From Eubacterium sp. (GTDB lineage: Bacteria > Bacillota > Clostridia > Christensenellales > CAG-314), in assembly GCA_963653425.1 (NCBI GenBank), contig CAVJWC010000004.1, positions 21,244 to 85,243 on the forward strand: a DNA stretch of 64,000 bases. The letters run 5' to 3'. How positions within the stretch are numbered: position 1 is the stretch's first letter; each line of letters starts with the position of its first letter. Of the stretch, positions 13,702-33,079 are shown in pieces. A program made the position numbers and the translations under genes. The notes under the pieces are model-generated. The model did not search any database, had not been told where the DNA came from, and saw only the letters and a list, made by a program, of their open reading frames with translations.

Positions 13702-14866
13702 TTTGTGCGTCGATATTGGTTATAAAAGTATAAATCACTACGGCGAACAGCTTTGCGGAGATCACGTTGACGTAGTCGAGCAGGGCGAGAATTCTTCCGT
13801 CATCGTTCTTGCGGACGGACTGGGAAGCGGAGTAAAAGCCAGTATTCTTTCCACGCTTACTTCCAAGATAATTTCCACCATGATGGCTGCGGGATTATCC
13901 ATAGAGGATTGCGTGGAAACCATTGCGGCGACTCTGCCCGTGTGTTCCGTAAGGGGCGTGGCTTATTCGACGTTTACCATTATCCATATCGTAAACAACG
14001 AAACGGCGGAAATTATCGAATTCGATAATCCGCAGGTCATAGCTCTTCGCGACGGCGAGAATTACGAAGCCCGCAGAACCGAAATGAACATCGGAGGAAA
14101 GAAAGTCTATAAAACCTCCGTTCATCTTCGCGACGGAGACGTGTTTATCGCAATGAGCGACGGCTGTCCGCACGCAGGTCTCGGAATTCAATACAATTTC
14201 GGTTGGAAACGAGACGACATTATAAGCTATATGGCTCCGCTTGTGTTTGCGGGTTATTCCGCGAAAACGCTTTCCACCATTCTCGTCGACGAGTGCAACA
14301 AGCTTTACGGCGAAAAACCGGGCGACGACGCCACGGCGTGCGTAGTAAAGGTAAGAAAGCGCGAGCCGATGAACATTCTTTTCGGACCTCCTGCCAACCG
14401 CGACGACGAAAACAGAATGATGTCCCTGTTCTTCTCGAAAGAGGGCAAGCACATTATCTGTGGCGGAACTACTTCGACCGTAGCCGCGCGTTATCTCGGT
14501 AAGCCCGTCAGGGCAAGCCTGAAATTTGCCCGCAGCGACGTTCCGCCCATAGCGGAAATAGAAGGCGTAGACCTCGTAACGGAAGGAGTTATAACGGTAA
14601 ATAAGGTTGTCGAATACGCAAACGACGCCTTGGGCGAAAACAAGCTTTACGAAAAATGGAGTTACGGTCAGGACGGAGCTTCTCTCATTTGCAGAATGCT
14701 TTTCGAAGAAGCGACGGACATTAACTTCTACGTCGGAAGAGCGGTTAATCCGGCTCATCAGAACCCTGATTTGCCCATTAACTTCAACATCAAAATGAAT
14801 TTGGTCGAAGAATTATCCAGATGTCTCAGACAGATGGGAAAGAGAATAAAAGTCAGTTATTTTTAA
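13694..14866 (+). CDS. PP2C/SpoIIE-family serine phosphatase
   Basis: GDHVDVVEQGENSSVIVLADGLGSGVKASILS... and ...IAMSDGCPHAG. The start is ATG 13694 (GAAGGAG at 13677-13683); the alternative is TTG 13688. It overlaps the hydS stop. Confidence 0.8.
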   Translation: MNDLCVDIGYKSINHYGEQLCGDHVDVVEQGENSSVIVLADGLGSGVKASILSTLTSKIISTMMAAGLSIEDCVETIAATLPVCSVRGVAYSTFTIIHIVNNETAEIIEFDNPQVIALRDGENYEARRTEMNIGGKKVYKTSVHLRDGDVFIAMSDGCPHAGLGIQYNFGWKRDDIISYMAPLVFAGYSAKTLSTILVDECNKLYGEKPGDDATACVVKVRKREPMNILFGPPANRDDENRMMSLFFSKEGKHIICGGTTSTVAARYLGKPVRASLKFARSDVPPIAEIEGVDLVTEGVITVNKVVEYANDALGENKLYEKWSYGQDGASLICRMLFEEATDINFYVGRAVNPAHQNPDLPINFNIKMNLVEELSRCLRQMGKRIKVSYF

Positions 14867-14875
14867 GGGATTATT

Positions 14876-16951: not shown

Positions 16952-16980
16952 TTGACACCATTCAAAATCGGTGCTATTAT
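16952..16980 (+). promoter_or_regulatory. Sigma-70-type promoter of protease-LRR paralogue 2
   Basis: TTGACA, 17-bp spacer, TATTAT, as at 1245-1273. Confidence 0.6.
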
Positions 16981-17063
16981 GTATTTGTATAATGGGTGTT
17001 TGTTTCGTTCTCTCCGTGCAATTATCCGTTTACAACACCAACCCACTGAGGAGGAAAAACAAG

Positions 17064-20000
17064 ATGCAAAGAAAAAGCTTGATAGCTGTTTTGCTTGTCG
17101 CAATGGTATTACTGCTCATATCGTGCAGTTCGCTTCAACTTGACAAGCCGAACGTTATCGATTCAAGTAACACAACAGCCCGCTTCTCTCGGTCTTTACT
17201 GAAAGCGGCGCAGTTCCTTAACGGCGGAACTTCCGAAACCGAATCGGATTCTTCCACCCTCCCCGCTAAAGACGACGAAGTTTACGTTACCGTAAAACTC
17301 GGTAGCGGTATCGTTGATTCTTACTTCGGTAGCGGATTTACGAGCGTTGCGGACTACGCACTTTCCAAAGAAGGCGAAGCCATGATCAGCGACTTTACCG
17401 CTCAGCAGGACTCGGTTATAGCTTTAATGAGAGACAAGAAGCTTACCACCGAAATCAAGCATCGTTACAACATTCTCCAGAACGGTTTCGCAGCTAAAAT
17501 CAAATTCGGCGACATCGAAACCGTAAAGGCTCTTCCGGGCGTAAAACAGGTCGTTCTCGCAGAAGAGTACTCCATTCCGGAAGTTTCTTCAAAAGCTTTG
17601 GCTGCTTCCTTTGCAGACACGGGTATTTTCAATAACCCCACGAATTACGCAGGAGCAGGAACGGTTATAGCTATTCTGGATACCGGTATTTATGCGGACC
17701 ATAGCGCATTTGCTACCGCTCCTTCCGTCGAAGCCATTAACTACGAATACGTAGAGAAAATACTTTCCGTAACCAATGCCGGCGCAGTAGGCGCAACGGC
17801 AGAAACAGCTTATTACAGCGCAAAAATCCCCTTCGCATTCAACTATGCGGACGGTAACGAAAGATTCCAGCCCGGTTATTCCGACATGAGCGTAGGTCAC
17901 GAACACGGCACTCACGTTGCGGGTATCGCGGCAGGTAACGACGACACTATAAAGGGTGCTGCCTGGGACGCTCAGCTCGCGGTTATGAGAGTATTCGGCG
18001 CAGGCAAGCAGGGCGCTAACGATACCGACATCTACGCGGCTGTAGAAGACTGCGTGATTCTCGGCGTTCAGGTTGCTAACCTTTCGCTCGGCAGTACGTG
18101 CGGTTTTGCTTACGAAAAGGCAGAACAGAATCAGTTCGTAAACGACATCGTTAACCTTGCAAGAAAAGCAGGTCTCACTATGTGTTGCGCAACGGGTAAC
18201 GTAGGTACGGCTTGGTGGGATTCGGATACTTTGGCTCCGTTCTCCGCCGTTGACGATCCCGATAACGGCACGGTAAGTTCGCCCGCTTCTTTCCCCAGCA
18301 CGTTTGCAGTAGGTTCCGCAAACAACCTCGTGAAGATTTACGTAAACTTCGAAGGTTCGAGAATAATCGGCAGAAACGGCGTTGTAGACTCCGAAACGAG
18401 CAAGGAAATCAACTTCTTCGCTATTCTTGACGGCAAAGACGAAGCGACCTTCGAATACGTTGCAGTTCCCGGCGCGGGCGCACCCGAAGATTACGACGGA
18501 CTTGACGTTACGGGTAAGATCGCTCTCGTTCAGAGAGGAGAAATCTCCTTTGCCGAAAAGGTTCAGAACGCAAAGGATAAAGGCGCGATAGCTTGTATTC
18601 TTTACGATAACGTAACCGAAAAGATTGAAAAATTCGGCGCGGTCGTAGGCGAAAACACTATTCCCACCATGACAATTACTCTTGAAGACGGCACCACGCT
18701 TGCCAATGCTCAGGACAAACGTATCACGATCGGCTCTTCCGACTATTTCGTGGAATACTCGTATTTCTCTTCGATGGGCGCTCTTAACGACCTTTCCATC
18801 GGCGTAGACATTCTCGGTATAGGCGCTGGCGTTTACTCCGCGGTTCCTCAGTACTATGACTGGCAGTTCGGAACAAACGGTTACACCTACATGGACGGTA
18901 CTTCCATGGCAACCCCCAACGTCGCAGGCGTTATGGCGGCTCTTAAAGGATACCTCAAACAGGCTTATCCCACCAAGACTCCTGCCGAAATCTCCAATCT
19001 CGCTATGCAACGTCTTATGAGCACGGCTACTATTCTCGAAAACTCCGACGGCAACCCCATCACCCCCAGAAGACAGGGTTCGGGTCTTGCAGACATCGAA
19101 AGAGCCATTGAAACCGACGCTTACATAACGGTAACCGGTTCGGACAGAACCAAACTCAACCTCGGTAGCGACACCGAAAAAGACGGTATTTATACGCTTA
19201 ACTTCAACGTTGTGAACGACGGCGAAAACGCTCTCGGTTATAAACTTAACGTACTTACCTTCACCGAATCCGCAGTAACCGGTAAATCCATAAACTACAC
19301 CTTAAAGGGCGCGGATAAACTCATGATTGCCGAAAAAGCTTATATGCTTGACGGCGCAGAAGTTAAGTATTACGTGAACGGCACGCTTCTCGAAGGCGAC
19401 GAAATCACCGTGGAAGCAGGCGAAAAACTCAAGATCAAAGCCGTTATCACTCTTACGGAAGAAAACAAAGCTTACATGAACGAAACCTTCCCCAACGGTA
19501 TTTACGTTGAAGGCTTTGCGGTTCTCGAAAGCACGGACGAAGAAGGCATCGACCTTCACATTCCGTACATATCTTTCTACGGCGATTGGATGACTCTTCC
19601 CGCATACGAACCCACGGCTTCCGACGGCACGGCTTCGACTTTCGGAAAATACTTCGGTCTTACGTTTATGTCCTATGAAGACGCAGGCAACGGCTGGTTC
19701 GTCGGACAGGAAATTCAGGCAGGCGTATATTCTTACACTCTTCCCGAAGGATACAAAGCTCCTACGGCTAATGCAGACAAAGCCGCTATCGGCAGAGGCG
19801 TTGACGACAACGGTTCTTTGGACGGAACGGTAATACTTAAAGCTATTAACCTTGCTATTAAGCGTAACGCTTCCTCGGTTTATCTCAGTTATACGAAGGT
19901 CGGCACCGGTGAAAGTCTCGGCAACGACGTTTTCTATAACATCGGTAAGGCTTGCGCAGGCACTAACGGCGGATATTCGCTCACTTTTAACGAATTCTAT

Positions 20001-23000
20001 CCCGAAACGCTGATGCTCGCAAACAACGAACAGCTTCTTTTCAGCTTTACCTACGACTTTAACGATAAGCCCGTCGGTCAGGTTGTTGATATGCCCGTAT
20101 TTATCGACCTCGAAGCTCCCACCCTTGAAAAAGCTTCCTGGAGAACGGAAGACGGCAGAACTTACCTCGACCTTACCGTTTACGACAACCATTACCTTCA
20201 GGCAACCGGTCTTCTTACCTACGGAACGGAAGACAGCTATAACAGCCTTTACAAATTCATGTTCCCGTGTTACGGCGACGTAAGAAACGGAGATTACTCC
20301 TACTCGATAGACGTTACCGATTATATGGCTAACGTTGTAAACGACACCTTTGCGGTTCAGCTCGTTGACTATGCAAGAAACGTTTCCGTTTACGAAATCG
20401 AACTTCCCGATAGCGGTGAAAACAACGCAAACGCTGTTATTACAGGCAACGAAAACCGTACTCTTGCGGTAAGATACCGTACCGACGACGCCGTAATTTA
20501 CTACGACGTAAACGATCCTTCCTATACGGAAGTTCACACTTACAGCAGTTTTGACAGCTCCAAGGCAAACAATGCCGTCGTTAACTCCGAAAGCGAAGGA
20601 ACGGACGAATTCGTTATCGAAAACGGCGTTCTTAAAGCTTACAACGGCGAAGGCGGAGAAGTTGTAATTCCCGACGGAGTTACCTCTATAGGCGCATACG
20701 TTTTCAACGGCGACAGCAGAATCACAAAACTCGTTCTTCCCGAAGGTCTTAAATCGATAGGTTATTATTCTATCAGAAATCTTTATCACCTCACCGAGAT
20801 CGTTCTTCCCAAGTCGCTCGAAAGAATGGAATATTATTCCTTCTGTACTCTTCCCTTGCTGACTTCTCTCGATCTTGAAAATACCAGCCTTAACTACGCG
20901 GCTTTCGCACTCAACGGTATAGCCGGCGTTAAGACTCTTACCTTCCCCAAGACGGAAACTCCGCTTACTCTTAACTTCACCTTGGACGTATGTTATAACC
21001 TCGAAAAGGTTACTTTCCTCGGCGACGTGGCGTCTATACATTCAAGCTTTATGTTCAACGATTCTCTTAAAGAAATCGAATTCATGGGCAACGTTACCTC
21101 TCTCGAAGGCGTAAGAGCAGGTATGGCTTTGTCGTTAACCGGTTGCGACGTTCTCGAAAGAATAGTATTCCACGGCAACGTAGACAAACTCGGCTACTGC
21201 ATAGTTCAGGATTACGGCGACTACGTTTACAAAGATTACAGTCAGGCAGCGTCCGCTCTTATCGGTCTTAAAGAAGTTATCTTCGAAAAAGACGTAGGAA
21301 GTATCGACGGTATATCCTTCTCCGGTTGCCCGAAACTTGAAAACGTAGCTTTCGGCGGAAACGTCGGCTACATAGGTAGCGGAGCATTCGGTGGAAGCGA
21401 CATGCTTTACGGCGGTTTCACCGTACTTGAAGGCAACGACAAGCTTATTAAAGACGAAACGGGTATCGTTTACAACGCAGACAAGACCGCTATGTTCAAG
21501 CCTTCGGCTTGGGATTACGACGGCGTACTCGAACTGCCCGAAACCATTACCGAACTTAACGAAAGAGAATTCTCCATTCCCGAATTCGTTCCCGAATACG
21601 TTAAACAGGATTACGGTATCTATCCCGAAGGAGAAAACGGCGGCGGTTATTACTGGAACCTCAACTCTATGTTCGGAAATCCCGACTACGACAAGACCCT
21701 CCTTAAAGGCGTTAAACTCGGAAGTCAGATAAAGACTTTACCCGCATATTGCTTCTACAGAAACTACAACCTTGCGGAAATCAACCTCGAAAACGTCGAA
21801 GTATTCAAAACGCAGTCCCTTTCGGGAACGGCTATAACAAGCTTCAGAACAACCGAAAACACCAAGAAGATCGGCGCGGGCGTTTGGAAAGGTTGCCGTA
21901 ACCTCACCGAAATCGTTATAGGCGAAAACGTTGAAGTGGAAACCTACGAAGAATTCTATTCCGGCACAGGTTTCGTTGAAATCGAAGTTCCCGAATATAT
22001 CACCGCAGACGCGGCTTACCTGTTCGCAGCCTGCAAGAACCTCGAAAAGGTAACCTTCCTTAATACCGGTTCTCAGAATATAGGTTCGGGCGCTTTCAGC
22101 GGTACGACTTCTCTTAAAGAAATCATAGGTATCGACAACGTAACCGCTATCGGCGAGTACGCATTCAATCTTTCGGGTATCACTCACCTCGAACTCGAAA
22201 ACGTAAAGAGTATATCCGGTCCTGCGTTCTACCATGCGGAGAAGATCGAATCCGTTTACTTCCCTGCTCTCGAAACCGTTGAACCGATATACGATTGGGA
22301 CGGCGAACTCTACAACGCGTTTGCATACTGCACGTCGCTTAAATCCTTCTACATCGGCGAAAACTGCGGTTACTTCAATCCTGTAGGAATGTTCGAAGGT
22401 TGCGACGCTCTCGAAGAAATCGTCGTTCACGAGAACAACCGTGTATTCTCTTCTATAGAAGGCATACTCTTCAACAAGGCAGAAACGGCTATTCTTCTCT
22501 ATCCGACGGCAAGCACCGCAACCGAACTCGAACTGCCCGACACCATCAAGGCGATTAACGCAGGAACGTTTATGGGCGCGCCCAACCTCGAAAAAGTAGT
22601 TATGCCCGCGGTCGAAACCATCGGCGCAAACGCATTCGCTTACTCGGCGGTTAAGGAAGTTGTCGTAAGCGACGCTCTCGTCGAAATCGGCTTAGGCGCG
22701 TTCAGAAATACCGCTATAAGCGAGTTTGATCTTTCCGACGTACTCGTTATCGACGACGACGCTTTCTATGCGACCAAGCTCACCGAAGTTACCGTAAACA
22801 AAGCGGAATACCTCGGAAACAAAGCTTTCGGCGCAATTGAAACGCTCGAAAAGGTAACTATCGGCGGAGTAGATGAATTCAACTTCTCCAGAGTATTCTT
22901 CGGTTCCACCAACATCTCTTCCGTTGAACTTAACGGCTGTGAAGTTCTCACCGAATTCGAAGACGGACTCTATAACGCAGACAAGACCGTTCTCTACAGA

Positions 23001-23354
23001 TACTTCGGAACGGAAGCAAACGTAACTCTTCCCGAAGGAATCGTTAAGATCGATTCTCACGCATTTGCAGGCAACACGACCGTTAAGAACGTAGTTCTTC
23101 CCGCAAGTCTCGGATATATCGCTGACGGCGCGTTCTACGGATGTACTGCTCTTACCGAAATCACCTTCAAATCCGAAAAAGCACCCGTTCTTCAGAACTA
23201 TTACAGAGACGGCGTAAGATACCTCTATAACCAGTTTGTAAACGATCTCGAAGAAGCTGACGGAAACGAAGACGTTAAGATTTACGTAAGCGGTGACGCA
23301 TCTTACAACACCTACATCTGGAGAACTTACTTCAAAAACATAATCGTAAAATAA
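17064..23354 (+). CDS. Giant S8 protease / BspA-type LRR lipoprotein, copy 2 (~2,096 aa)
   Basis: ATG 17064 with GAGGAGG upstream. It has the same lipobox N-terminus and the motifs AILDTGI, HGTHVAG and GTSMATP. It is collinear with copy 1 but diverges mainly in the catalytic-domain loops and the central LRRs. Confidence 0.85.
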   Translation: MQRKSLIAVLLVAMVLLLISCSSLQLDKPNVIDSSNTTARFSRSLLKAAQFLNGGTSETESDSSTLPAKDDEVYVTVKLGSGIVDSYFGSGFTSVADYALSKEGEAMISDFTAQQDSVIALMRDKKLTTEIKHRYNILQNGFAAKIKFGDIETVKALPGVKQVVLAEEYSIPEVSSKALAASFADTGIFNNPTNYAGAGTVIAILDTGIYADHSAFATAPSVEAINYEYVEKILSVTNAGAVGATAETAYYSAKIPFAFNYADGNERFQPGYSDMSVGHEHGTHVAGIAAGNDDTIKGAAWDAQLAVMRVFGAGKQGANDTDIYAAVEDCVILGVQVANLSLGSTCGFAYEKAEQNQFVNDIVNLARKAGLTMCCATGNVGTAWWDSDTLAPFSAVDDPDNGTVSSPASFPSTFAVGSANNLVKIYVNFEGSRIIGRNGVVDSETSKEINFFAILDGKDEATFEYVAVPGAGAPEDYDGLDVTGKIALVQRGEISFAEKVQNAKDKGAIACILYDNVTEKIEKFGAVVGENTIPTMTITLEDGTTLANAQDKRITIGSSDYFVEYSYFSSMGALNDLSIGVDILGIGAGVYSAVPQYYDWQFGTNGYTYMDGTSMATPNVAGVMAALKGYLKQAYPTKTPAEISNLAMQRLMSTATILENSDGNPITPRRQGSGLADIERAIETDAYITVTGSDRTKLNLGSDTEKDGIYTLNFNVVNDGENALGYKLNVLTFTESAVTGKSINYTLKGADKLMIAEKAYMLDGAEVKYYVNGTLLEGDEITVEAGEKLKIKAVITLTEENKAYMNETFPNGIYVEGFAVLESTDEEGIDLHIPYISFYGDWMTLPAYEPTASDGTASTFGKYFGLTFMSYEDAGNGWFVGQEIQAGVYSYTLPEGYKAPTANADKAAIGRGVDDNGSLDGTVILKAINLAIKRNASSVYLSYTKVGTGESLGNDVFYNIGKACAGTNGGYSLTFNEFYPETLMLANNEQLLFSFTYDFNDKPVGQVVDMPVFIDLEAPTLEKASWRTEDGRTYLDLTVYDNHYLQATGLLTYGTEDSYNSLYKFMFPCYGDVRNGDYSYSIDVTDYMANVVNDTFAVQLVDYARNVSVYEIELPDSGENNANAVITGNENRTLAVRYRTDDAVIYYDVNDPSYTEVHTYSSFDSSKANNAVVNSESEGTDEFVIENGVLKAYNGEGGEVVIPDGVTSIGAYVFNGDSRITKLVLPEGLKSIGYYSIRNLYHLTEIVLPKSLERMEYYSFCTLPLLTSLDLENTSLNYAAFALNGIAGVKTLTFPKTETPLTLNFTLDVCYNLEKVTFLGDVASIHSSFMFNDSLKEIEFMGNVTSLEGVRAGMALSLTGCDVLERIVFHGNVDKLGYCIVQDYGDYVYKDYSQAASALIGLKEVIFEKDVGSIDGISFSGCPKLENVAFGGNVGYIGSGAFGGSDMLYGGFTVLEGNDKLIKDETGIVYNADKTAMFKPSAWDYDGVLELPETITELNEREFSIPEFVPEYVKQDYGIYPEGENGGGYYWNLNSMFGNPDYDKTLLKGVKLGSQIKTLPAYCFYRNYNLAEINLENVEVFKTQSLSGTAITSFRTTENTKKIGAGVWKGCRNLTEIVIGENVEVETYEEFYSGTGFVEIEVPEYITADAAYLFAACKNLEKVTFLNTGSQNIGSGAFSGTTSLKEIIGIDNVTAIGEYAFNLSGITHLELENVKSISGPAFYHAEKIESVYFPALETVEPIYDWDGELYNAFAYCTSLKSFYIGENCGYFNPVGMFEGCDALEEIVVHENNRVFSSIEGILFNKAETAILLYPTASTATELELPDTIKAINAGTFMGAPNLEKVVMPAVETIGANAFAYSAVKEVVVSDALVEIGLGAFRNTAISEFDLSDVLVIDDDAFYATKLTEVTVNKAEYLGNKAFGAIETLEKVTIGGVDEFNFSRVFFGSTNISSVELNGCEVLTEFEDGLYNADKTVLYRYFGTEANVTLPEGIVKIDSHAFAGNTTVKNVVLPASLGYIADGAFYGCTALTEITFKSEKAPVLQNYYRDGVRYLYNQFVNDLEEADGNEDVKIYVSGDASYNTYIWRTYFKNIIVK

Positions 23355-23474
23355 GCGATTAAATAGCTAATCGTAAAATAAGCGATTAAGTAACAACAAC
23401 CAATCGTAAAAGCGATTACACAGCAACAACCAATCGTAAAAGCGATTAAATAGCTAATCGCAAAACAAACGATT
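23342..23474 (+). repeat. Five imperfect copies of AATCG-N6-9-CGATT overlapping the stop codon of paralogue 2
   Basis: Units start at 23342, 23369, 23402, 23432 and 23456. Confidence 0.6.
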
Positions 23475-23493
23475 AAACAAGCCGAAAGGCGAA

Positions 23494-23520
23494 GGCTCCG
23501 CATTTGCGGAGCCTTTTTTA
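23494..23520 (+). terminator. Intrinsic terminator
   Basis: ggctccgc-attt-gcggagcc followed by TTTTTT. Confidence 0.8.
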
Positions 23521-23683: not shown

Positions 23684-23712
23684 TTGACAAAAAAGAAAAA
23701 CCGTGATAAAAT
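23684..23712 (+). promoter_or_regulatory. Promoter of the TM1266-family gene
   Basis: TTGACA, 17-bp spacer, TGaTAAAAT (extended -10). Confidence 0.55.
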
Positions 23713-23732: not shown

Positions 23733-23990
23733 ATGGAATACAGAGTTGCGGTAATCAGCATTATCGTGGAAAAAAACGAAAAAGTGGAGGTTCTTAACGA
23801 GCTTCTGCACGAATACGGGGATTATATCCTCGGCAGAATGGGTATTCCGTACAGAAAACGCGGTATCAACATAATAAGTATCGCTCTCGACGCACCGCAG
23901 GACGTTATAAATTCTCTCGCCGGCAAAATCGGCAGAATAGAGGGTATAACCACAAAAACCGCCTATTCGGGAAGCGTTTATTCCGACTGA
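23733..23990 (+). CDS. TM1266-family putative [FeFe]-hydrogenase-system regulator (small ACT/NikR-C-like protein, 85 aa)
   Basis: Its size and the sequence VAVISIIVEKNEKVEVLNELLHEYGDYILGRMGIPYRKRGINIISIALDAP... are typical of the family found next to hydE/F/G. Confidence 0.7.
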   Translation: MEYRVAVISIIVEKNEKVEVLNELLHEYGDYILGRMGIPYRKRGINIISIALDAPQDVINSLAGKIGRIEGITTKTAYSGSVYSD

Positions 23991-24000
23991 CGATAACGGG

Positions 24001-24065
24001 TTAAAACGGAATTGCTCGTAGATTAAAACGGAATCGCTCGCAGATTAAAACGACGTCGGTCGTCC
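24001..24065. repeat. 22-bp tandem repeat x3 (ttaaaacggaattgctcgtaga)
   Basis: Units start at 24001, 24023 and 24045. Confidence 0.6.
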
Positions 24066-24254
24066 TTCCGAACGAAACCCGACGGAAACCGACAAAAAAT
24101 CCGTTAAAATCGATTCAAACCTACAGAAATCGATTGAAATTGAATAGAAATCGGTTAAAACCGACAAAAAACGACGAATAATAAAAAATCGAATCCCTGA
24201 CGCCGAAATTGCGATTGAGGCGAAAGATAAGGTTCGTGTGAGTGAGTTTGCTTT

Positions 24255-24288
24255 ACCGCACGCCTTTTTCGGGGGGTGCGGTTTTTTC
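24255..24288 (+). terminator. Terminator/attenuator hairpin immediately upstream of the ABC permease RBS
   Basis: accgcac...gtgcggt stem followed by TTTTTT, ending 3 nt before GGAGAA (24291-24296). Confidence 0.5.
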
Positions 24289-24299
24289 GTGGAGAAACA

Positions 24300-25298
24300 A
24301 TGAAAACAGGCTTTTCGACTAAAATCAATTATCCGCTGATTATCGGGCTTATACTTTTCCCCGTGGTAAGTATTCTCGTGTGCTTCTGTATAGGCAGGTA
24401 TTCCGTGTCCGTGGTGGAAATGCTGAGTTGGATTTTCGGCGGAAAGATAGATTCCGTCACGGCTTCGGTACTTTCGCAGAGATTGCCGAGAATTCTCACC
24501 GCGGCTCTCGTGGGCGGAGGACTTTCCGTTGCGGGTTGCGTACTGCAAAGCACCTTTTCCAATCCTCTGGCAACGCCCGACACGTTGGGTGTGGCTTCGG
24601 GCGCGAGTTTCGGCGCGGCTCTTTCCATTTTACTCGGCTTTTCGCTTATAGGAAGTCAGATTCTGGCTTTCGTTTTCGGCGTGGGGGCTTTGCTTCTCAC
24701 TATGCTTGCGGGAAAACGCCGTAGCGGAACGACTTCCATGATTCTTGCGGGCGTAATGATGGGTTCGCTCTTTTCGTCGCTGGTTTCGCTCGTGAAATAT
24801 CTTGCCGACACGGAATCCCAGCTTCCGTCGATAACCTACTGGCTTATGGGAAGTCTGAGCGGAGCGGGCAAAAAAACGCTGATTTTCGGCGCGCCCGTGA
24901 TAATTATCGGCATACTCGTGCTTTTCGTAATGAGAAGGAAACTCAACCTTCTGCCTCTTTCCGAAGACGAAGCCACTTCTCTCGGAACGGATATAAAGAA
25001 ACTGAGAATTACCGCTCTTACCGCGTCGGCGGCAATTACCGCTTCGTCGGTGGCTATGTGCGGTCCCGTGGGCTGGGTAGGGCTTCTCGTTCCTCACGTT
25101 TCGAAAATGCTTTTCGGGAACAATCATAAGATAACCGTTCCCGCTTCGATAAGTTTCGGTTCGGCTTTTCTTGTGGCGGTGGATACGCTTGCACGGTCGG
25201 TTACCGCTTCGGAAATCCCCATATCCGTATTGACGTCGGTTATCGGCGCGCCCTTTTTTATCTATATCCTCAGAAGAAAGGGAGGAAGCGGTTTATGA
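24300..25298 (+). CDS. FecCD/BtuC-type ABC permease (iron-chelate/cobalamin-type importer)
   Basis: A ~330-aa polytopic protein with ...LTAALVGGGLSVAGCVLQSTFSNPLATPDTLGVASGASFGAA... and ...SVLTSVIGAPFFIYIL. The start is taken at ATG 24300. Confidence 0.85.
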   Translation: MKTGFSTKINYPLIIGLILFPVVSILVCFCIGRYSVSVVEMLSWIFGGKIDSVTASVLSQRLPRILTAALVGGGLSVAGCVLQSTFSNPLATPDTLGVASGASFGAALSILLGFSLIGSQILAFVFGVGALLLTMLAGKRRSGTTSMILAGVMMGSLFSSLVSLVKYLADTESQLPSITYWLMGSLSGAGKKTLIFGAPVIIIGILVLFVMRRKLNLLPLSEDEATSLGTDIKKLRITALTASAAITASSVAMCGPVGWVGLLVPHVSKMLFGNNHKITVPASISFGSAFLVAVDTLARSVTASEIPISVLTSVIGAPFFIYILRRKGGSGL

Positions 25299-26347
25299 TT
25301 TTTCAGGTAAAAAACGGCTGTTTCCGCTATAATAAAAAAGAAGACGACGTGCTTTCAGACGTGAATTTCGACGTTAAAAGCGGAGAAATACTTGCCGTTC
25401 TCGGTCCCAACGGAGCGGGTAAGACTACGCTTTTAAGGTGCGCTCTGGGTTTTTTGAAGTTTGACAGGGGCGAAGCTTTGTTTGACGGAAAGAACGTGCG
25501 CTCGTATAGTCCGAGCGAACTTTGGAGGAAAGTGGCTTACGTTCCTCAGGCAAGGCAGACCATATCGCCCTATACGGTGGAAGAAACGGTACTTCTCGGA
25601 AGAAGCAGTTACGGCGATATACTCGGCAGAATTACCGCGGAAGACTATAAAGCAGCGGACGAAGTCATAGAAAAACTCAATTTAGAGCGCATACGGCATA
25701 AAAATTGCAGTGAAATAAGCGGAGGAGAACTTCAGATGGTTCTGATTGCCCGCGCGCTTGCCGTTTTCCCCGAACTTCTCGTACTCGACGAACCCGAATC
25801 CAACCTCGACTTCCGCAATCAGCTTCTCGTTCTCGATACGCTGACGAGACTTGCAAAAAACGGTACGGGTATAATTCTCAACACTCACTATCCCGCGCAC
25901 GCCCTCAGACGGGCGGATAAGGCTCTTATGCTGGGGAAGGACGGAAGTTCGGAATTCGGAAGAACGCAGGAAGTCGTGACGAGCGAAAATATCGGCAGGT
26001 TTTTCGGAGTGAACGCGGTTATAGGCGAAATCGAAACCGACACCAACCATTATATCGACGTTATTCCCGTGGACTTCGATTTGCCCAAGGAAAACACCGA
26101 CGATTCCGAAGTTATAGCTACCTTGTCGGTGATTATGAAAGACAATTCCGTAGCTCAGGAAGTCAACGCCGTTATCCACAAAGCCTTTCCCTTCGTTCTC
26201 GGAAGAATGGGAATGCCCGTAAGGGACGAAGGCTTATATATAATCAATCTCGTGCTTAAAGCTTCCCCGCGCGAAATCCGAGCCGTTTTAAGAGAACTTA
26301 ACGAAAAATCGGGCGTGAGCGTCAAAGCCGTTTTCGAAAGGAGATGA
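25295..26347 (+). CDS. ABC transporter ATP-binding protein (FepC/BtuD-like) fused to a C-terminal TM1266-like domain
   Basis: Walker A GPNGAGKTT, signature SGGELQ, Walker B LLVLDEP. The extra C-terminal ~85 aa (VIATLSVIMKDNSVAQEVNAVIHKAFPFVLGRMGMPVRDEGLYIINLVLKASP...) align with the stand-alone TM1266 protein. Confidence 0.85.
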   Translation: MIFQVKNGCFRYNKKEDDVLSDVNFDVKSGEILAVLGPNGAGKTTLLRCALGFLKFDRGEALFDGKNVRSYSPSELWRKVAYVPQARQTISPYTVEETVLLGRSSYGDILGRITAEDYKAADEVIEKLNLERIRHKNCSEISGGELQMVLIARALAVFPELLVLDEPESNLDFRNQLLVLDTLTRLAKNGTGIILNTHYPAHALRRADKALMLGKDGSSEFGRTQEVVTSENIGRFFGVNAVIGEIETDTNHYIDVIPVDFDLPKENTDDSEVIATLSVIMKDNSVAQEVNAVIHKAFPFVLGRMGMPVRDEGLYIINLVLKASPREIRAVLRELNEKSGVSVKAVFERR

Positions 26348-26351
26348 ACTT

Positions 26352-27404
26352 ATGGTCAGGGATTTAATAGTAAAGCTTAAAGAAAACCGCAGTCTTTCTC
26401 ATTCCGAATGGGTTGAGGTTTTAAGTCGTTACACGGACGAAGACAGAGTTTTTGCCGAAAACGAAGCAAGAAATCTTACCGAAAGAATATTCGGCAGAAA
26501 GATTTTCTTCCGAGGAATAATCGAATTCACCAATTACTGCAAAAACGACTGCTACTACTGCGGAATAAGACGTTCCGACTTAAACGCCGTTCGCTACAGG
26601 CTTTCAAAGGAAGAAATTCTCGAATGCGCCCGAGAAGGCTACGCTTTGGGATACAGAACTTTCGTCCTTCAGGGCGGAGAAGACGCGTTTTTCACCGACG
26701 AAAGACTGATCGATATTATAAAAGCCATAAAGGCGGAATTCCCCGAATGCGCGATTACTTTATCCGTAGGCGAGCGCGACAGAGCTTCCTACGAAAAGCT
26801 GTTCGAAGCGGGCGCGGACAGATACCTTCTTCGTCACGAAACGGCAGACTGCAAGCTTTATAGTAAGCTTCACCCAAAGGAACTTTCACTCGAAAACAGA
26901 ATGAGATGTTTAAGAGACCTTAAAGAAATCGGTTTCCAGACGGGCGCGGGAATGATGATAGGCGCGCCTTATCAGACGGCGGAAGAACTTGCGGAAGACA
27001 TGGAATTTTTGTCCGAATTTAAGCCTCAGATGGTGGGTATAGGTCCGTTTATCCCCCATAAAGACACGCCCTTTTGCGGTTTTCCGTCGGGTAACGAAAA
27101 TCTGACTCTCTTTTGCCTGAGTCTCGTTCGGCTTATGCTTCCCTGTTCGCTTTTGCCCGCGACTACCGCGCTCGGAACGGTTGACGGACGGGGCAGACAA
27201 AAGGGCGTTCTTGCGGGCTGCAACGTCGTTATGCCCAATCTTTCGCCTTTGTCCGTCAGAAAAAAGTACCTTTTATACGACGGAAAGGCAGGAACCGACA
27301 GCGACGCCGAAGAAGGTCTTAAAGTCCTCAGAAAACAGATGGAAGAAATCGGCTACGAGGTCGTAACGGGCAGAGGAGACTATAAACGGGAGGAGAATTT
27401 ATGA
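26352..27404 (+). CDS. hydE: [FeFe]-hydrogenase H-cluster radical-SAM maturase HydE
   Basis: [19 protein letters not shown] (CX3CX2C), [19 protein letters not shown], and [14 protein letters not shown]...LPATTALGT all closely recall the T. maritima HydE sequence as I remember it. Confidence 0.85.
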
Positions 27405-28165
27405 TAAGAATCGCGATTTACGGCAAAGGCGGAATAGGAAAATCCACGACGGTTTCCAATATTTCCGCGGCTCTTTCCGAAAAAGGGCTTAAAGTAATGC
27501 AGATAGGGTGCGATCCCAAAGCAGATTCCACGGTGAACCTTCTTCACGGTGAAAAAATCAATACCGCGCTCGATCTTATACGGGAAAAAGGCAACGATTT
27601 TGTGCTTTCCGATATGGTAAAAATCGGATTCGGAGGAGTGGTTTGCGCCGAAGCGGGCGGTCCCGTCCCCGGTCAGGGTTGTGCGGGAAGAGGTATTATA
27701 GCGGCACTTGAAAAGCTCGAAGAAAAAGGTGCGTACGAAGTCTATAAGCCCGACGTGGTTTTTTACGACGTTTTAGGCGACGTCGTGTGCGGAGGTTTTG
27801 CCATGCCCATGAGAGCAGGTTACGCGCAAAAGGTCTTTATTATAACTTCGGGCGAAAATATGGCTATCCACGCCGGTGCAAATATCGCCGTCGCCTTAGA
27901 TAACTTCAAAGGCAGAGGTTACGCCACGCTCGGAGGAATTATCCTTAACAGAAGGAACGTCCGTAACGAAGAAGAAAAGGTTGCGGAGCTTTGCGACGAC
28001 ATTCATTCGTCGATAACGGGAAGTCTTTCGTTCAGTCCCGTGGTTCAGGAAGCGGACGAGAAGAAGAAGACGGTTATCGAAGCTTTCCCGGACAGCGAAA
28101 TGGCGGAAGAATACAGAAAGCTTGCCGTAAGCGTGATAAAAGCCTGCGGAGGAGATATATGCTGA
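27401..28165 (+). CDS. NifH/BchL-family ATPase (nitrogenase iron-protein-like, short form, 254 aa)
   Basis: [15 protein letters not shown]-loop, [12 protein letters not shown], and both cluster Cys ([18 protein letters not shown]). Confidence 0.85.
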
Positions 28166-29472
28166 AAAGATTGGGCGAAAGCGCGGATATAAAGCCCGTT
28201 AAGATTTCCGAAGCCTCTTTTCCGTCGCCCTTTTCCTCGGGTCTCGAATATTCGGCGCCCGCGAGAGGCGTTTTCAACATAGTCCACACGGGTATGCTTA
28301 TACCCGAAATTCACGAAATTTTCGTGTGCGCGCAGGGTTGTCTCAGAGGAGTGGTTTTAACCGCTGCGGAAATGGGTGCGCAGGAGAGATTCTCTACAGT
28401 TACCGTCAAGGAAAACAACCTTCTTGAAGGCGATATGGAAAGCCTTATAATAGAAGGCGTTTCGGATATTCTTTCAAGGCTCGGTTCGGTTCCGCCCGCC
28501 GTTCTCGTATATACGAGTTGCATCCATCATTTTACGGGGTGTGACCTTAACTACTGCTACGCCGAGCTGAGAAAGAGATTCCCGTCGGTTGAGTTTACCG
28601 ACTGTTATATGAACCCCATTATGCGTAAAAGCGGACTTACGCCCGATCAGATTATGCGCAAACAGCTTTACAGCCTGTTAACGCCAATGAGTTCCGACGG
28701 CGGAATAAATATCATCGGGAACAACTATTCAACGGACGACGAAAGCGACATAGTAAAGCTTATATTAAAGTCGGGAAGGAAACTCAGAGAAGTCACGAGA
28801 TGCAGTAGCTACTCGGAATACAAAGAAATGGCTATGTCTGCGCTTAACGTGAGCTACAACCCGTCGGCTCGCGCTGGCGGAGAAGCTCTCGGAAAAAGGC
28901 TTAACCGAAAACACCTGTTTTTGCCTATGAGCTTCTCGGAAGACAAGATAATCCGTAATATGACCTTGCTTTCAAACGAACTCAACGTAAGTTACGACTG
29001 CGAAGAAGATAAAGAACGCGCCGTAGAAGCCATTAAAAAAGCCCGTAAAGCGGTTGGCGACCGTCCCGTCGCCGTGGACTATACGGCTGTCATTGCGCCA
29101 CTCAGCCTCATAAAACTGCTCGTAGAATTCGGTTTCAACGTCAAAAGGTTTTATACCGATTCTTTTATGCCTATGGAAAGAGAAGAATTCGACTATCTTA
29201 AAGAGAATCTTCCGAATCTTGAAATTCTGCCGACCGTCCGTCCCGAAATGGGAGTAGCAGGCAGGAATCAACCCGAATTCCTTTGCGTGGGACAGAAATC
29301 CGCCTATTTTACGGGTACGAAAAACTTCGTGAATATCGTCGAAGGCGCGGGTTTATACGGGTTTTACGGCATAAGGAGAATTGCTGAACTCATAGAAGAA
29401 GCGAATGCCACGGAAAAAGAAGCGCGCGACTGCATTCAGCAAAAAGGTTGGGGGTGCAACTGCTGTTTATGA
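28159..29472 (+). CDS. Nitrogenase component-1-type (NifD/NifE/BchN-like) protein, 437 aa
   Basis: ATG 28159 overlaps the upstream stop. It has Cys at 57/61/121 and a family-like strand [13 protein letters not shown]...[10 protein letters not shown]. The tail is Cys-rich (GWGCNCCL). Confidence 0.65.
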
Positions 29473-30584
29473 AACAAACTCAGAAGATAATTTCCACTTA
29501 CACGGCGGACGTTTCGGGCGTATGCTCGGCGCTATACGAACTCGAAGGAATGACGGTTATACACGACGCGTCGGGCTGTAATTCCACCTATAACACTCAC
29601 GACGAACCTCGTTGGTACGACAGTCCGAGTCTCGTTTTCATATCGGGACTTACCGAAACCGAGGCTATTATGGGGGACGACGAGAAACTCGTCCGCGACA
29701 TAACCGAAACCGCAAAGGAATTAAAACCGCGTTTTATAGCCATAGCGGGTTCGCCCGTTCCTATGATGACGGGGTGCGACATTCCTGCGATTGCGCGCGA
29801 AACGGAAGCCTTGACGGGCATTCCTTCCTTCGGTTTTCAGACGAGCGGAATGCATTCCTACGTTTCAGGCGCGGGAGAGGCGCTTGAGGCGTATATCGAT
29901 CGTTTCGCGGAACGAAAAGAGAAGAAGAAAAGAAGCGCGAATATCTTAGGCGTAACGCCCGTGGATTTTTCGGTTAACGGGCAGAACGAGAGTATGAAAA
30001 CCTTTCTTATCGAAAACGGATGGGAGGTTATAAGTACGGTAGCTCAGGGAAGTTCACGGCAGGAAATCGCTCTTACGGCTCAGGCGGAAGTCAACCTCGT
30101 CGTCTCTTCCGTAGGACTTAAAACCGCCCGCCTTCTTTATAAGAAGTTCGGAACGCCCTACGTCATAGGTACGCCCTACGGAAAAGAATTCGGAAATCGT
30201 CTCGTTCGTATGATGGAAAAATCCTCGGAAACGGGAGAAAACGCAGTGGGGTTCGGTGACTTTGCGGGTTTCGGCGACGTCTTTATTATAGGCGAATGCG
30301 TAACTTCCCGTTCTTTGGCTATGGCTATAAACATTAAATACGGCAAAGAAGTCCGCGTTATCTGTCCGCTTGAAATGAGCGAAGGACTGCTTTCTACTGG
30401 CGACTACGCTTTATCGGAAGAAGAGGACGTCGAAAACGCGCTTAAAAACGCTTCCGCCGTTATAGCCGATCCGCTTTATAAGCCCATAGTTCCCAAGTCC
30501 GCGAAGTTTTTCGCTCTTCCGCACGAAGGCTTTTCGGGCAGACTTTACAGAAAGAACATTCCCGACCTTATAAAAGGAATATAG
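29469..30584 (+). CDS. Nitrogenase component-1-type (NifK/NifN/BchB-like) protein, 371 aa
   Basis: ATGA overlap with the upstream gene. Motifs include YTADVSGVCSAL, IHDASGCNS, LTETEAIMGDDEKL and AIAGSPVPMMTGCD. Confidence 0.65.
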   Translation: MKQTQKIISTYTADVSGVCSALYELEGMTVIHDASGCNSTYNTHDEPRWYDSPSLVFISGLTETEAIMGDDEKLVRDITETAKELKPRFIAIAGSPVPMMTGCDIPAIARETEALTGIPSFGFQTSGMHSYVSGAGEALEAYIDRFAERKEKKKRSANILGVTPVDFSVNGQNESMKTFLIENGWEVISTVAQGSSRQEIALTAQAEVNLVVSSVGLKTARLLYKKFGTPYVIGTPYGKEFGNRLVRMMEKSSETGENAVGFGDFAGFGDVFIIGECVTSRSLAMAINIKYGKEVRVICPLEMSEGLLSTGDYALSEEEDVENALKNASAVIADPLYKPIVPKSAKFFALPHEGFSGRLYRKNIPDLIKGI

Positions 30585-30753
30585 CGGAGTTCTTCCCTGC
30601 TTAATCGAAGGAATATAATCCTTTCGGTTTAGTCAAAGGAACGTAAAAACGCTTTGGTTTAATCGAGCGTACAAAACGAAGACGTTGACGTTACGAAAAA
30701 CGAAAAAGTAACGTTCGATAGGATATAAAAACCAATTGAAAAAGGAGAAAAAT

Positions 30754-31866
30754 ATGAAAAAAACAGTATTGATTTTACTGCTCGTGTGCCTTACGCTGAC
30801 GCTTTGCGCCTGCCCGTCGCCCGAGCCTCAACCCGACGCAGACACGATTACCGTGACCGACCACGCGGGAAACCAAGTTACTCTTCCCAAAGAAATCAAC
30901 AGAATAGTAGTCGCGGATATATTTCCGCTTCCGTCAATTCTCTCGGTGTTTTTCGGTTCCGCAAGCAAGCTTGTGGGCATAGCGCCTACAAGTATGGCTG
31001 CCGCTAAAAACAGCCTTCTTTCCGAGCTTTATCCCGAAATTCTGAACGCCGAAACGAGTTTTATGCAGGGCGCCGTCGTTAATGCGGAAGAACTCGCAAA
31101 ACTCAGACCCGACGTCGTTTTCGTAAGCACGGGAAGCGCGAAACAGGGCGAAACTTTAAGAAACGCAGGCTTTAACGTAGTGGAAATTTCCGCAAGCAAG
31201 TGGGAATACAACGCAATCGAAACGCTTAACGAGTGGATAAGTCTGCTTTCCGAAATCTTCCCCGCAAGTCAGGAAAGAGCTGAGCTTGCAAAGAAAGCCA
31301 GCCTCGAAGCTTACGACCTCGTAACAAAGAGAGTAAGTTCGCTTAAAACCGAAGAAAAGAAACGCGTGTTCTTTATGTTCCAGTACGGCAAAGACAACAT
31401 TCTGACTTCGGGCAAGAACTTCTTCGGTCAGTGGTGGGCGGAAGCTATGGGCGCGGTCAACGTTGCGGAAGAACTTACCAAAGATAATTCCGTAGCCGTA
31501 AATCTCGAACAGGTTATAGAATGGAATCCCGATATAATCTTCATTACCAACTTCACTACGGCTCAGCCCAAAGACCTTTACGAAAACACTATAGGCAACT
31601 ACGACTGGTCGGAAGTTTCGGCTGTCAAGAACAGAAAGGTATATAAAATGCCTCTCGGTATGTACAGAAGCTACACGCCCGGCATAGATACGCCCGTAAC
31701 TCTTCTCTGGTTTGCAAAGACGGCTTACCCCGAGCTTTTCGGCGACATAGACATAATTGATGAAGTTATAAGCTACTATAAGGACGTTTTCGGAGCGGAA
31801 CTCACTAAGGCTCAGGCTGAATCCATCTTTGCTCCCTCGGGAAACGCAGGAAAAATCGATTATTAG
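30754..31866 (+). CDS. ABC substrate-binding lipoprotein, FhuD/BtuF (chelate-binding) type
   Basis: MKKTVLILLLVCLTLTLCAC lipobox. ITVTDHAGNQVTLPKEINRIVV... is typical of cluster-A binding proteins. The start is ATG 30754, with AAGGAG at 30742-30747. Confidence 0.8.
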   Translation: MKKTVLILLLVCLTLTLCACPSPEPQPDADTITVTDHAGNQVTLPKEINRIVVADIFPLPSILSVFFGSASKLVGIAPTSMAAAKNSLLSELYPEILNAETSFMQGAVVNAEELAKLRPDVVFVSTGSAKQGETLRNAGFNVVEISASKWEYNAIETLNEWISLLSEIFPASQERAELAKKASLEAYDLVTKRVSSLKTEEKKRVFFMFQYGKDNILTSGKNFFGQWWAEAMGAVNVAEELTKDNSVAVNLEQVIEWNPDIIFITNFTTAQPKDLYENTIGNYDWSEVSAVKNRKVYKMPLGMYRSYTPGIDTPVTLLWFAKTAYPELFGDIDIIDEVISYYKDVFGAELTKAQAESIFAPSGNAGKIDY

Positions 31867-31876
31867 GAGATAAACT

Positions 31877-33079
31877 ATGGGACTTAACGATACGCCTTCT
31901 TCCGAAAGAGTGCATATAGGATTTTTCGGACTGAGAAACGCGGGAAAATCCAGTCTCGTCAACGCCGTTACGGGACAGAACCTTTCCCTCGTTTCCGAGA
32001 TAAAGGGAACGACTACCGATCCCGTTCAGAAAACCATGGAGCTTCTTCCCATTGGTCCCGTGGTAATCATAGATACCCCCGGCATTGACGACAGCGGTTC
32101 GTTGGGCGAAATGCGGGTTACCCGGGCAAGAAGAATGCTTGATAAAACCGATATAGCCGTTCTCGTAGTTGACGCCACTTTGGGACTTAACGGCGGAGAT
32201 AAGGAACTTATCGAACTGTTCACCGAAATGAAGATTCCTTATATCGTCGCTATGAATAAGTGCGACCTCCTCACTAAAATACCCGAAACCAAAGATAACG
32301 TTATCTACGTAAGCGCGGAAAAACGTCTGAACGTTTACGAGCTTAAAGAAATGATAGGCAGGCTTTCTGGAGTGCAGGATAAAGGCAAAAGGCTTATAGG
32401 CGACCTGATTTCAAAAAAAGACGTAATAATTCTCGTTACGCCCGTAGATTCGGCTGCTCCGAAGGCAAGACTTATTCTTCCTCAGCAGGAAACAATACGT
32501 GACATTCTCGATTCCGACGCGATAAACGTCGTGGTCAAAGAAACCGAACTTAAGGACGCTCTTGAACTTCTTAGCGGAAAAGTCAGAATGGTTGTTACCG
32601 ACTCTCAGGCTTTCGGAAAGGTCAGCAAAGAAACTCCCGAAGACATTCTGCTTACCTCCTTTTCCATACTGTTTGCCCGCTATAAAGGCGAACTCGACGA
32701 AGCTGTGAAGGGCGCGACTGCTCTTAAAACATTGAAGGACGGCGACAAAGTGCTTATCTCCGAAGGCTGTACTCACCACAGACAGTGCGGAGACATAGGC
32801 TCGGTGAAGCTTCCGAATTGGATAAGCGGTTTTACGGGCAGGAAACTTTCCTTCGATTTCACGTCGGGCGGAACTTTCCCCCAAGACCTTTCGGAATACG
32901 CTCTGGTCGTCCATTGCGGAGCGTGTATGCTCAACGAACGCGAAATGCATTCCCGCATAGAAAAGGCAAGAAACGCAGGCGTTCCCATAACCAATTACGG
33001 AATAGCCATAGCTATGATTCACGGCATATTGAAGCGTTCGCTTTCGCCCTTTCCCGAGCTTATAAAGAGGTATTTTTAA
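31877..33079 (+). CDS. hydF: [FeFe]-hydrogenase H-cluster maturation GTPase HydF
   Basis: G1 motif GLRNAGKSSL, G3 DTPGIDD, G4 NKCD, and C-terminal cluster motif EGCTHHRQC...VHCGACM. Confidence 0.85.
   Translation: MGLNDTPSSERVHIGFFGLRNAGKSSLVNAVTGQNLSLVSEIKGTTTDPVQKTMELLPIGPVVIIDTPGIDDSGSLGEMRVTRARRMLDKTDIAVLVVDATLGLNGGDKELIELFTEMKIPYIVAMNKCDLLTKIPETKDNVIYVSAEKRLNVYELKEMIGRLSGVQDKGKRLIGDLISKKDVIILVTPVDSAAPKARLILPQQETIRDILDSDAINVVVKETELKDALELLSGKVRMVVTDSQAFGKVSKETPEDILLTSFSILFARYKGELDEAVKGATALKTLKDGDKVLISEGCTHHRQCGDIGSVKLPNWISGFTGRKLSFDFTSGGTFPQDLSEYALVVHCGACMLNEREMHSRIEKARNAGVPITNYGIAIAMIHGILKRSLSPFPELIKRYF

Follow-up and report, generated by a model that had tools for sequence, protein, structure and literature searches.

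The importer ATPase ends in a TM1266-family domain

We analysed a stretch of 64,000 nucleotides (nt) from a Eubacterium sp. (GenBank assembly GCA_963653425.1, contig CAVJWC010000004.1, positions 21,244 to 85,243 of the forward strand; the whole stretch is called the window below), in which an operon of tightly packed or overlapping genes encodes, in this order, a free TM1266-family protein, a FecCD permease, an ATP-binding cassette (ABC) ATPase with a TM1266-like domain, HydE, NifH-like, NifD-like and NifK-like proteins, a Peripla_BP_2 lipoprotein and HydF (Table 1). Our subject is the C-terminal region, or tail, of the ATPase, which an earlier note made from the sequence alone had described as a paralogue of the free TM1266 protein that gates import. 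The open reading frame at 25295-26347 on the forward strand encodes an ABC ATPase of 350 amino acids (aa), in whose translation the tail sequence quoted in that note occupies aa 273-347, and its start lies 1.3 kb from the end of the free TM1266 gene, as claimed. The nucleotide-binding domain, which the note had taken to be complete, is indeed so: an ABC_tran match spans aa 20-167 (E 5.5e-31), and the protein retains intact versions of Walker A (GPNGAGKT), the signature (SGGELQ), Walker B including the catalytic Glu (LDEPES) and the H-loop (NTHYPAH). These motifs were invariant in 64 homologues and, with the Q-loop, are those of a type II importer ATPase; the subfamily signature DEPESNLDF.NQL likewise showed no variation in this set. 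The matching partners are encoded in the same operon, namely the PF01032 FecCD permease, whose gene overlaps that of the ATPase at the stop and start codons, and the PF01497 Peripla_BP_2 lipoprotein.

A Pfam scan of the whole ATPase placed the TM1266-like family PF21699 at aa 274-345 (E 1.2e-12), where the score of 48 bits exceeds the gathering score of 27, and the isolated tail had PF21699 as its sole Pfam match (E 9e-14, 51.6 bits against the same gathering score), with no match to TOBE, NIL or ACT. The likeness to the free TM1266 protein (23733-23990), which had been aligned by eye, was borne out by BLASTP, with 28% identity over 74 ungapped aa (E 7e-14) and a common GRMG.P core. The tail also matched the only solved member of the family, TM1266 of Thermotoga maritima (PDB 2NZC), at E 1e-7, and at 2.8e-15 by profile. 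The ATPase tail is a bona fide TM1266-family domain, not a generic TOBE/NIL regulatory domain. Its score for the equivalog TIGR03959 (hyd_TM1266) lies below the cut-off (58.5 against 60.8 bits) and it is not free-standing, so that it falls outside that equivalog.

The best Foldseek matches of the full-length model were the solved chelate-type ATPases HI1470/MolC (2nq2), HmuV (4g1u), BhuV (5b58) and BtuD (4dbl), each of 248-262 aa. This agrees with the usual length of about 250-270 aa that the note had given for the class, and indicates that the extra residues here, about 90, are a genuine addition. The full-length AlphaFold2 model, built on a 64-sequence alignment, had a mean predicted local distance difference test score (pLDDT) of 87, with both the ATPase and the C-terminal domain confident and a disordered linker between them (pLDDT below 50 at aa 264-269). 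Across 119 fused homologues the linker was acidic and variable in length, with columns conserved at 13-34%. A folded extra domain (aa 273-350) thus follows the ATPase domain after a disordered linker, an arrangement also seen in ATPases with trans-inhibition domains, and the model supports a tail that is tethered in the manner of ATPases with known regulatory domains.

When modelled alone, the tail reached a pLDDT of 95 with beta-alpha-beta-beta-alpha-beta topology, and Foldseek aligned it with chains A, B and D of 2NZC at template modelling (TM) scores of 0.92-0.95 and root-mean-square deviations of 0.8-1.4 A. The next folds were many NikR C-terminal nickel-binding domains (TM score 0.77-0.86, E 1e-5 to 4e-4), and ACT domains ranked behind these (RelA ACT 0.73-0.76, IlvN about 0.6). 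The full-length model also aligned with MetN, and the 366-371 aligned columns take in the C2 regulatory domain of that protein. These comparisons support, at the level of predicted structure, a tail fold that is that of ligand-binding regulatory modules. By analogy with known importers, the tail may be an accessory module with a fold of the NikR-C/ACT class that binds a ligand and thereby regulates BtuCD-type import, a reading to which we assign a probability of roughly 0.5.

The fusion is widespread, and its tail is an old paralogue of the free protein

Of the 120 homologue clusters that matched best (48-67% identity), the survey of architectures found PF00005 and PF21699 together in 119. The fusion is therefore widespread and old, not a one-off, and the ABC-TM1266 architecture has already been catalogued automatically in databases; NCBI names one fused protein (P0033) 'TM1266 family iron-only hydrogenase system putative regulator'. 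Among 1.84 billion representatives searched by profile, 1414 belonged to the TM1266 family at E <= 0.001. When 150 representative family matches were sorted by BLAST against the ATPase domain, many proved to be short fragments at contig ends. The free protein had 6861 homologue clusters, the best 120 of which were all single-domain proteins of about 85 aa, and it was 66-87% identical to thousands of homologues of that length.

Conservation among the 119 fused homologues was concentrated at A275, N291, G303, R304, M305, G306, P308 and K344, each at least 97% conserved, of which R304, M305, G306, P308 and K344 can be called invariant across the tails; M307 was 89% conserved, and G313 is also among the conserved residues. 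The corresponding motif in T. maritima TM1266 is RVGYP, which reduces the family-wide core to N, H, R.G.P and K.

Mean identity was 65% among free proteins, 44% among tails and 37% between the two groups, and in a distance tree tails and free proteins formed separate old clades, the free proteins being one clade. The tail and the free protein of the window are thus paralogues of ancient origin rather than the product of a local duplication: the paralogy put forward in the note stands, and a recent duplication in place does not.

Two metagenomic proteins carry the domain in other company. In P0292 an N-terminal TM1266 domain is in frame with a HydE-like radical S-adenosylmethionine (SAM) enzyme (249 aa, cut at the contig end), and in P0354 a GNAT acetyltransferase is followed by a TM1266 domain. 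Each is a single observation in which a frameshift artefact is possible. Together they suggest a portable sensor module, as ACT-type modules commonly are.

The operon joins hydrogenase maturases, a nitrogenase-like enzyme and an importer

The operon combines full-scoring HydE and HydF, an uncharacterised nitrogenase-like enzyme and a chelate-type importer. Its likely start, as judged from the sequence, is a promoter that precedes the free TM1266 gene and follows a terminator-like hairpin of the gene upstream (about 23487-23520).

Table 1. Coordinates of the operon features in the window and of the three parts of the ATPase.
Feature	Coordinates	Strand	Evidence
Sigma-70-like promoter, likely: TTGACA, 17-nt spacer, TAAAAT, with TG	23684..23712	+	11/12 consensus positions matched
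Free TM1266-family protein, 85 aa, single domain	23733..23990	+	PF21699 E 1.7e-31; TIGR03959 114 bits vs cut-off 60.8
Unusually long spacer, free TM1266 gene to permease gene	23991..24300	+	Three repeats, hairpin
FecCD/BtuC-type permease	24301..25298	+	PF01032 E 1.4e-85; best NCBIfam BtuC, FecC, FecD
Type II (chelate-type) ABC importer ATPase domain, aa 1-258	25295..26068	+	PF00005 E 5.5e-31; AlphaFold2; Foldseek
Acidic linker, variable length, aa ~259-272	26069..26110	+	pLDDT; column conservation
C-terminal TM1266-like domain, aa 273-350 (coordinates run through the stop codon)	26111..26347	+	PF21699; tail model; Foldseek
HydE-family radical SAM enzyme	26352..27404	+	TIGR03956 538 bits vs cut-off 254.6
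NifH-like ATPase/reductase of nitrogenase-like (NFL) enzyme	27401..28165	+	PF00142 E 1.6e-86
NifD-like subunit	28159..29472	+	PF00148 E 4.7e-14; no NCBIfam family matched
NifK/NifE-like subunit	29448..30584	+	PF00148 E 1.8e-29; best NCBIfam NifE, 68 bits, far under cut-off
Importer substrate-binding lipoprotein (Peripla_BP_2)	30736..31866	+	PF01497 E 4.5e-22; weak IsdE, SstD, BtuF matches
HydF GTPase scaffold	31877..33079	+	TIGR03918 555 bits vs cut-off 325.6; HydF_dimer, HydF_tetramer domains

The free TM1266 protein itself matched 2NZC at E 4e-13. The permease reading frame opens at a GTG at 24276, and its likely start is the ATG at 24301. The spacer before it holds three TTAAAACGGAAT.GCTCG units, 22-nt-spaced, at 24001-24063 and a terminator-like hairpin with a T-run at 24261-24288, immediately 5' of that ATG. 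Such a long spacer is not common to relatives, in which the gap is 0-190 nt, and it consequently says nothing about the family. A riboswitch was considered as a clue to the ligand and rejected: Rfam at gathering thresholds returned nothing near the operon, and the long spacer with its repeats and hairpin is absent from the relatives.

Among the downstream genes, the NifH-like protein scored under the cut-offs of both NifH (320 against 394) and CfbC (306 against 402). The nifD-like gene starts at an ATG (28159) that still lies within the nifH-like gene, near its end, and the NifD-like proteins of related loci were 52-73% identical. The binding lipoprotein begins with a signal peptide followed by Cys. 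No hydG was found within the 64-kb window.

The hydE gene lies directly 5' of the nifH-like gene, which is the order of the B-H-D-K sets, and HydE-NifH-NifD-NifK fits the pattern of a radical SAM 'B' gene followed by HDK. The operon thus resembles the Group IV sets MarBHDK and IsrBHDK in having a radical SAM enzyme and NifH-, NifD- and NifK-like proteins in the same order. The B proteins of the known Group IV sets come from unrelated radical SAM lineages (PMC11423573, PMC13474568). The window differs from MarBHDK/IsrBHDK in that its radical SAM enzyme is a full-scoring HydE and that the operon also encodes HydF, a chelate-type importer and TM1266 modules.

The operon varies around a classic hydrogenase-maturation layout

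The nine-gene order recurred in assemblies unrelated to one another (L002, L085/86, L089/90, L092, L096 and others), with protein identities of 50-80%. In some variants HydE was missing or lay upstream, with an aspartase-family lyase added after HydF (L003, L093, L109); others had the importer and the nitrogenase-like genes only (L101, L115, L120) or the importer only (L001, L091, L104). The classic context of the free protein, TM1266-HydE-HydG-HydF without an importer, was seen in L087, L088 and L071. The free TM1266 of these classic operons was 69% identical to the window copy, which indicates that it is the same orthologue, and their HydE was 52-55% identical to that of the window. Set against the classic layout, TM1266 is followed by an insertion of the importer genes, and the hydG slot is taken by NifHDK and the binding protein. 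In loci with enough flank to judge, hydG was absent within 10 kb of any that contained nifHDK.

These replacements raise the speculative and quite unlikely possibility that the importer and the nitrogenase-like reductase stand in for hydG and supply HydE and HydF with an iron or Fe-S precursor, which would be made without HydG or scavenged from the cell's surroundings, while the tail senses an intermediate of the pathway. If so, the TM1266 domain of the ATPase would match import to demand, and TM1266 proteins would be metabolite sensors of the assembly of the H-cluster, or of a similar cluster, rather than transcriptional regulators.

One locus (L163, 3052-6041), the only one with hydG besides the classic operons, reads TM1266, FecCD, tail-less ATPase, HydE and then HydG (62% identity) in place of NifH. 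This suggests that the position can hold either HydG or the nitrogenase-like genes, and that the importer is compatible with hydG in a hyd operon. A second gene order, NifH, NifD, NifK, binding protein, FecCD, ATPase, was present in L006, L007, L051, L121 and L142, among the matches listed; no HydE, HydF or free TM1266 was found within the flanks of these loci, which extend 2-4 kb on some sides. Their ATPases were tail-less in L006, L007 and L051 and tailed in L121 and L142, and the tails of the latter two were closer to free TM1266 (about 50% identity) than to the window tail. The relevant loci in the scan of genome contigs by full-length alignment, among the matches listed, were L005-L008, L010 and L051.

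The tail follows the importer, and the free protein follows the maturases

We took a census of 80 metagenome loci that were collected with the subfamily motifs LDEPESN and LDF[RK]NQL, a sample biased toward relatives of the window. Among the 40 loci with at least 2.3 kb of upstream sequence, 24 had both the tail and the free gene, seven had the tail without the free gene, and nine paired the free gene with a tail-less ATPase. With both flanks available (20 loci), the five that lacked the free gene were all tailed and also lacked HydE and HydF, and the 15 that had the free gene had HydF in 13 cases and HydE in 12. The free protein therefore tracks the HydE and HydF maturases and the tail tracks the importer, to which, on the evidence of the five well-flanked loci, it belongs. 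Tail and free protein are separable: since seven of the 31 tailed ATPases have no free TM1266 gene, the tail does not need the free copy, and the idea that it depends on the free protein was weakened accordingly.

The same counts bear on an alternative in which the tail is a docking site or scaffold, either assembling with a dimer of the free TM1266 protein as a NikR-like tetramer or holding HydE, HydF or the nitrogenase-like enzyme for the hand-over of a labile cargo. The NikR C-terminal domain is a tetramerisation domain and 2NZC holds four chains, and proximity would also fit, since the free TM1266 gene lies directly 5' of the permease in nine of 11 distinct tailed loci found by protein look-ups, and likewise in 24 of 31 tailed metagenome loci. 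The TM1266-HydE fusion P0292 hints at physical partnership, although this single, truncated protein may be an artefact, and retention of the domain in Loigolactobacillus rennini after loss of its GRMG.P motif (see below) would also be in keeping with docking. However, the tailed loci without a nearby free gene, five of them also without HydE and HydF, the nine pairings of the free protein with a tail-less ATPase, and the occurrence of the same free orthologue in classic operons that have no importer all argue for independence of the two. The census weakens the docking alternative, which we consider rather unlikely.

In several lineages the tail has been lost or has decayed. In a human-gut lineage (L164, L169, L174) it was cleanly lost while free TM1266, HydE, NifHDK, the binding protein and HydF were kept; in L164 the ATPase ends right after the linker (near 10330) and hydE starts 36 nt further on (near 10366). 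In L094/L095 (7628-11128) the operon is cut to TM1266, FecCD, a tail-less ATPase of 268 aa and the binding protein, in surroundings otherwise identical to those of L085/L086. A single deletion of the tail, hydE and nifHDK could account for this layout, and hydF is missing as well. In L. rennini DSM 20253 (L005, NZ_AYYI01000092.1, 8707-12474) the order is TM1266, FecCD, ATPase with tail, HydE and NifH-like to the contig end; the tail is degenerate, with NQTKLP in place of GRMG.P and Gln in place of the His, yet the domain is kept and the free TM1266 is intact. If the L. rennini genome has no [FeFe] hydrogenase, the HydE encoded there cannot serve one.

Such losses from operons that are otherwise intact, together with the decay in L. 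rennini, could mean that the tail is a functionless relic, a fusion left by accidents of gene order in an operon that already had a TM1266 gene. This explanation is highly improbable given that the invariant motif residues are kept across more than 100 clusters that share only 34-65% tail identity, that the tails form an old clade apart from the free proteins, and that the fold is predicted with very high confidence (pLDDT 95). A domain that is conserved and yet dispensable fits the pattern expected of a regulatory add-on and not of an essential part of the transport machinery.

The conserved patch suggests a small molecule rather than a NikR-type metal site

The note had suggested profile comparisons with NikR-C and ACT domains; a sequence-profile link to NikR was rejected. 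An hhalign comparison of the tail profile with E. coli NikR, whose sequence was entered by hand, was not significant (probability 0.15%), an hmmsearch of the tail profile against the PDB detected no NikR, and no ACT profile matched, so that the likeness is one of predicted fold, visible by structure comparison only. Free-type members of the family gave sub-threshold Pfam matches to NikR_C (E 0.05-0.09). Although not significant, the hhalign register is consistent with the structural match and places NikR H76, H87, H89 and C95 on H295, G306, P308 and L314 of the tail, so that the conserved patch maps to the region of the nickel site. We take the nickel site of E. coli NikR to be a square-planar His3Cys site formed by H76', H87, H89 and C95; three of these four ligand positions are replaced in the tail, in this non-significant alignment, which lends no support to a NikR-type His3Cys site there. 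Independently of the alignment, no Cys is conserved among the 119 fused homologues and there is one conserved His only, which is missing in several lineages.

These data bear on the possibility that the tail is a NikR-type metal sensor or metallochaperone, which binds Fe(II), Ni(II) or another metal and shuts import when the cell is replete or receives the metal. The closest fold outside the family is the metal-binding domain of NikR, the transporter is of the metal-chelate class, and in the non-significant alignment H295 lies on NikR H76 and the conserved strand-2 motif on the strand of H87 and H89. Against this, Gly306, Pro308 and Leu314 stand where NikR has H87, H89 and C95, and the conserved Asn, Arg and Lys are atypical as ligands of transition metals. 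We regard a NikR-type metal sensor as very unlikely, since the lack of a conserved Cys and the presence of a single His argue against such a site and favour either a ligand of organic or anionic nature that Asn, His, Arg and Lys would contact, or a protein interface.

Of the two kinds of sensor proposed in the note, the small-molecule sensor is accordingly the more likely to judge from the sequences: the fold of a ligand-binding module was upheld by the Foldseek matches to NikR-C and ACT domains, and the NikR-type metal sensor was not. Nor did the suggestion that the free copy acts directly on transcription hold. The free protein is a bare 85-aa beta-alpha-beta-beta-alpha-beta domain, the tail follows an ABC ATPase domain, and neither has a ribbon-helix-helix DNA-binding domain. 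The free protein is hence not a conventional transcription factor, an idea that we dropped, and a direct transcriptional role for it is unlikely.

A possible mechanism for regulated import

The reading that we prefer, in which the tail is a regulatory module of the importer, can be put in mechanistic terms. The tail would be an autonomous ligand-sensing domain on a flexible linker, present in two copies per transporter, and in the assembled transporter the two copies would be placed beneath the ATPase dimer, where they may pair. They would bind a cytoplasmic small molecule tied to the pathway of HydE, HydF and the nitrogenase-like enzyme, and the ligand-bound tails could alter the ease with which the ATPase domains close, so that import is throttled or licensed. 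In the model, the candidate binding site most likely combines K344 of strand 4 with the strand-2 segment G303-R-M-G-x-P308 and with N291 and H295, which lie where helix 1 ends. As this patch lies in the region of the NikR nickel site without having the NikR ligands, the ligand is more probably organic or anionic than a bare metal ion.

The logic would be that of MetN, ModC and MalK, executed by a different domain family on a type II importer, and from these three the gating of import that the note had proposed can reasonably be inferred. MetNI has two C2 domains, which come together under its ATPase domains and, by binding the transported ligand, stop transport. The window tail resembles C2 (NIL) in that both extend an importer ATPase at its C-terminus by a ferredoxin-like alpha/beta domain, but the tail has no sequence relationship to C2 (no NIL match), MetNI is a type I importer whereas the window importer is of type II (FecCD/BtuC), and the ligand of the tail need not be the transported substrate. 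ModC and MalK also carry C-terminal regulatory domains, which couple transport to cytoplasmic signals; their TOBE domains have an all-beta, OB-like fold, in contrast to the beta-alpha-beta-beta-alpha-beta fold of the tail, which has no TOBE match. BtuCD-F, HmuUV, BhuUV and MolBC share with the window importer the class of ATPase domain, the FecCD permease and the Peripla_BP_2 protein, but their solved ATPases have no C-terminal domain. T. maritima TM1266 (2NZC; TIGR03959/PF21699) belongs to the same family and fold as the tail and has the N, H, R.G.P and K positions in common with it; it differs in being a free protein of about 85 aa encoded beside hydE, hydG and hydF, whereas the tail is covalently attached to an ABC ATPase, and its clade is a separate one that evolves faster.

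Several points weigh against a regulatory role. We know of no ligand for any TM1266 protein, nor of any characterised type II importer with a C-terminal regulatory domain, and the analogy with MetN, ModC and MalK therefore crosses importer classes. H295, part of the candidate site, is 87% conserved in the tails, and the tail evolves faster than the free protein, as the mean identities indicate. The conserved patch could equally be a protein-protein interface, and the relative placement of the tail and the ATPase domain in the monomer model is uninformative.

If the tail is regulatory, it would to our knowledge be without precedent among the type II (BtuCD-class) importers described so far. TM1266 is annotated in thousands of genomes of anaerobes as a 'putative iron-only hydrogenase system regulator', a name with no experiment behind it. 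The fusion to an importer, the NikR-C/ACT sensor fold and the invariant surface patch make this label testable, and they point to the idea that TM1266 may be a small-molecule sensor that acts on proteins and not on DNA.

In the literature searched, TM1266 appeared in gene lists only, as co-regulated with hydE and hydG in Thermotoga, and we found no published work on what TM1266 does, on the ABC-TM1266 fusion or on HydE and HydF together with nitrogenase-like genes. A 2026 review of nitrogenase-like enzymes describes several uncharacterised groups and mentions neither HydE nor this combination of genes, and a 2024 study of hydF/hydE genome neighbourhoods, which focused on ammonia-lyases, makes no mention of nitrogenase-like or ABC genes. 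The tail would belong with the C-terminal regulatory domains of importer ATPases. More surprising than the tail is the operon in its entirety.

Hydrogenase genes and giant surface-protein genes precede the operon

Upstream of the operon, three genes lie at 12028-16303: one for a homologue of sensory-type [FeFe] hydrogenases (557 aa), which has an FeS domain at its C-terminus, one for a SpoIIE/PP2C phosphatase of 392 aa, and one for a monomeric [FeFe] hydrogenase of type B1 (475 aa; TIGR04105, 565 bits). The same trio also precedes the TM1266 operon in L089 and L090.

Two giant paralogous genes (1245-7634 and 16971-23354) encode surface proteins of lipoprotein type, of 2129 and 2127 aa and 84% identical, in which numerous leucine-rich repeats accompany a subtilase-like region. 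The second of them sits between the [FeFe] hydrogenase gene and the TM1266 operon; since in L089 and L090, the closest relatives, the hydrogenase gene is directly followed by TM1266, this gene looks like an insertion or duplication. Between its stop codon and the terminator, in non-coding sequence, short direct repeats extend over 23341-23477 in units with AATCG...CGATT.

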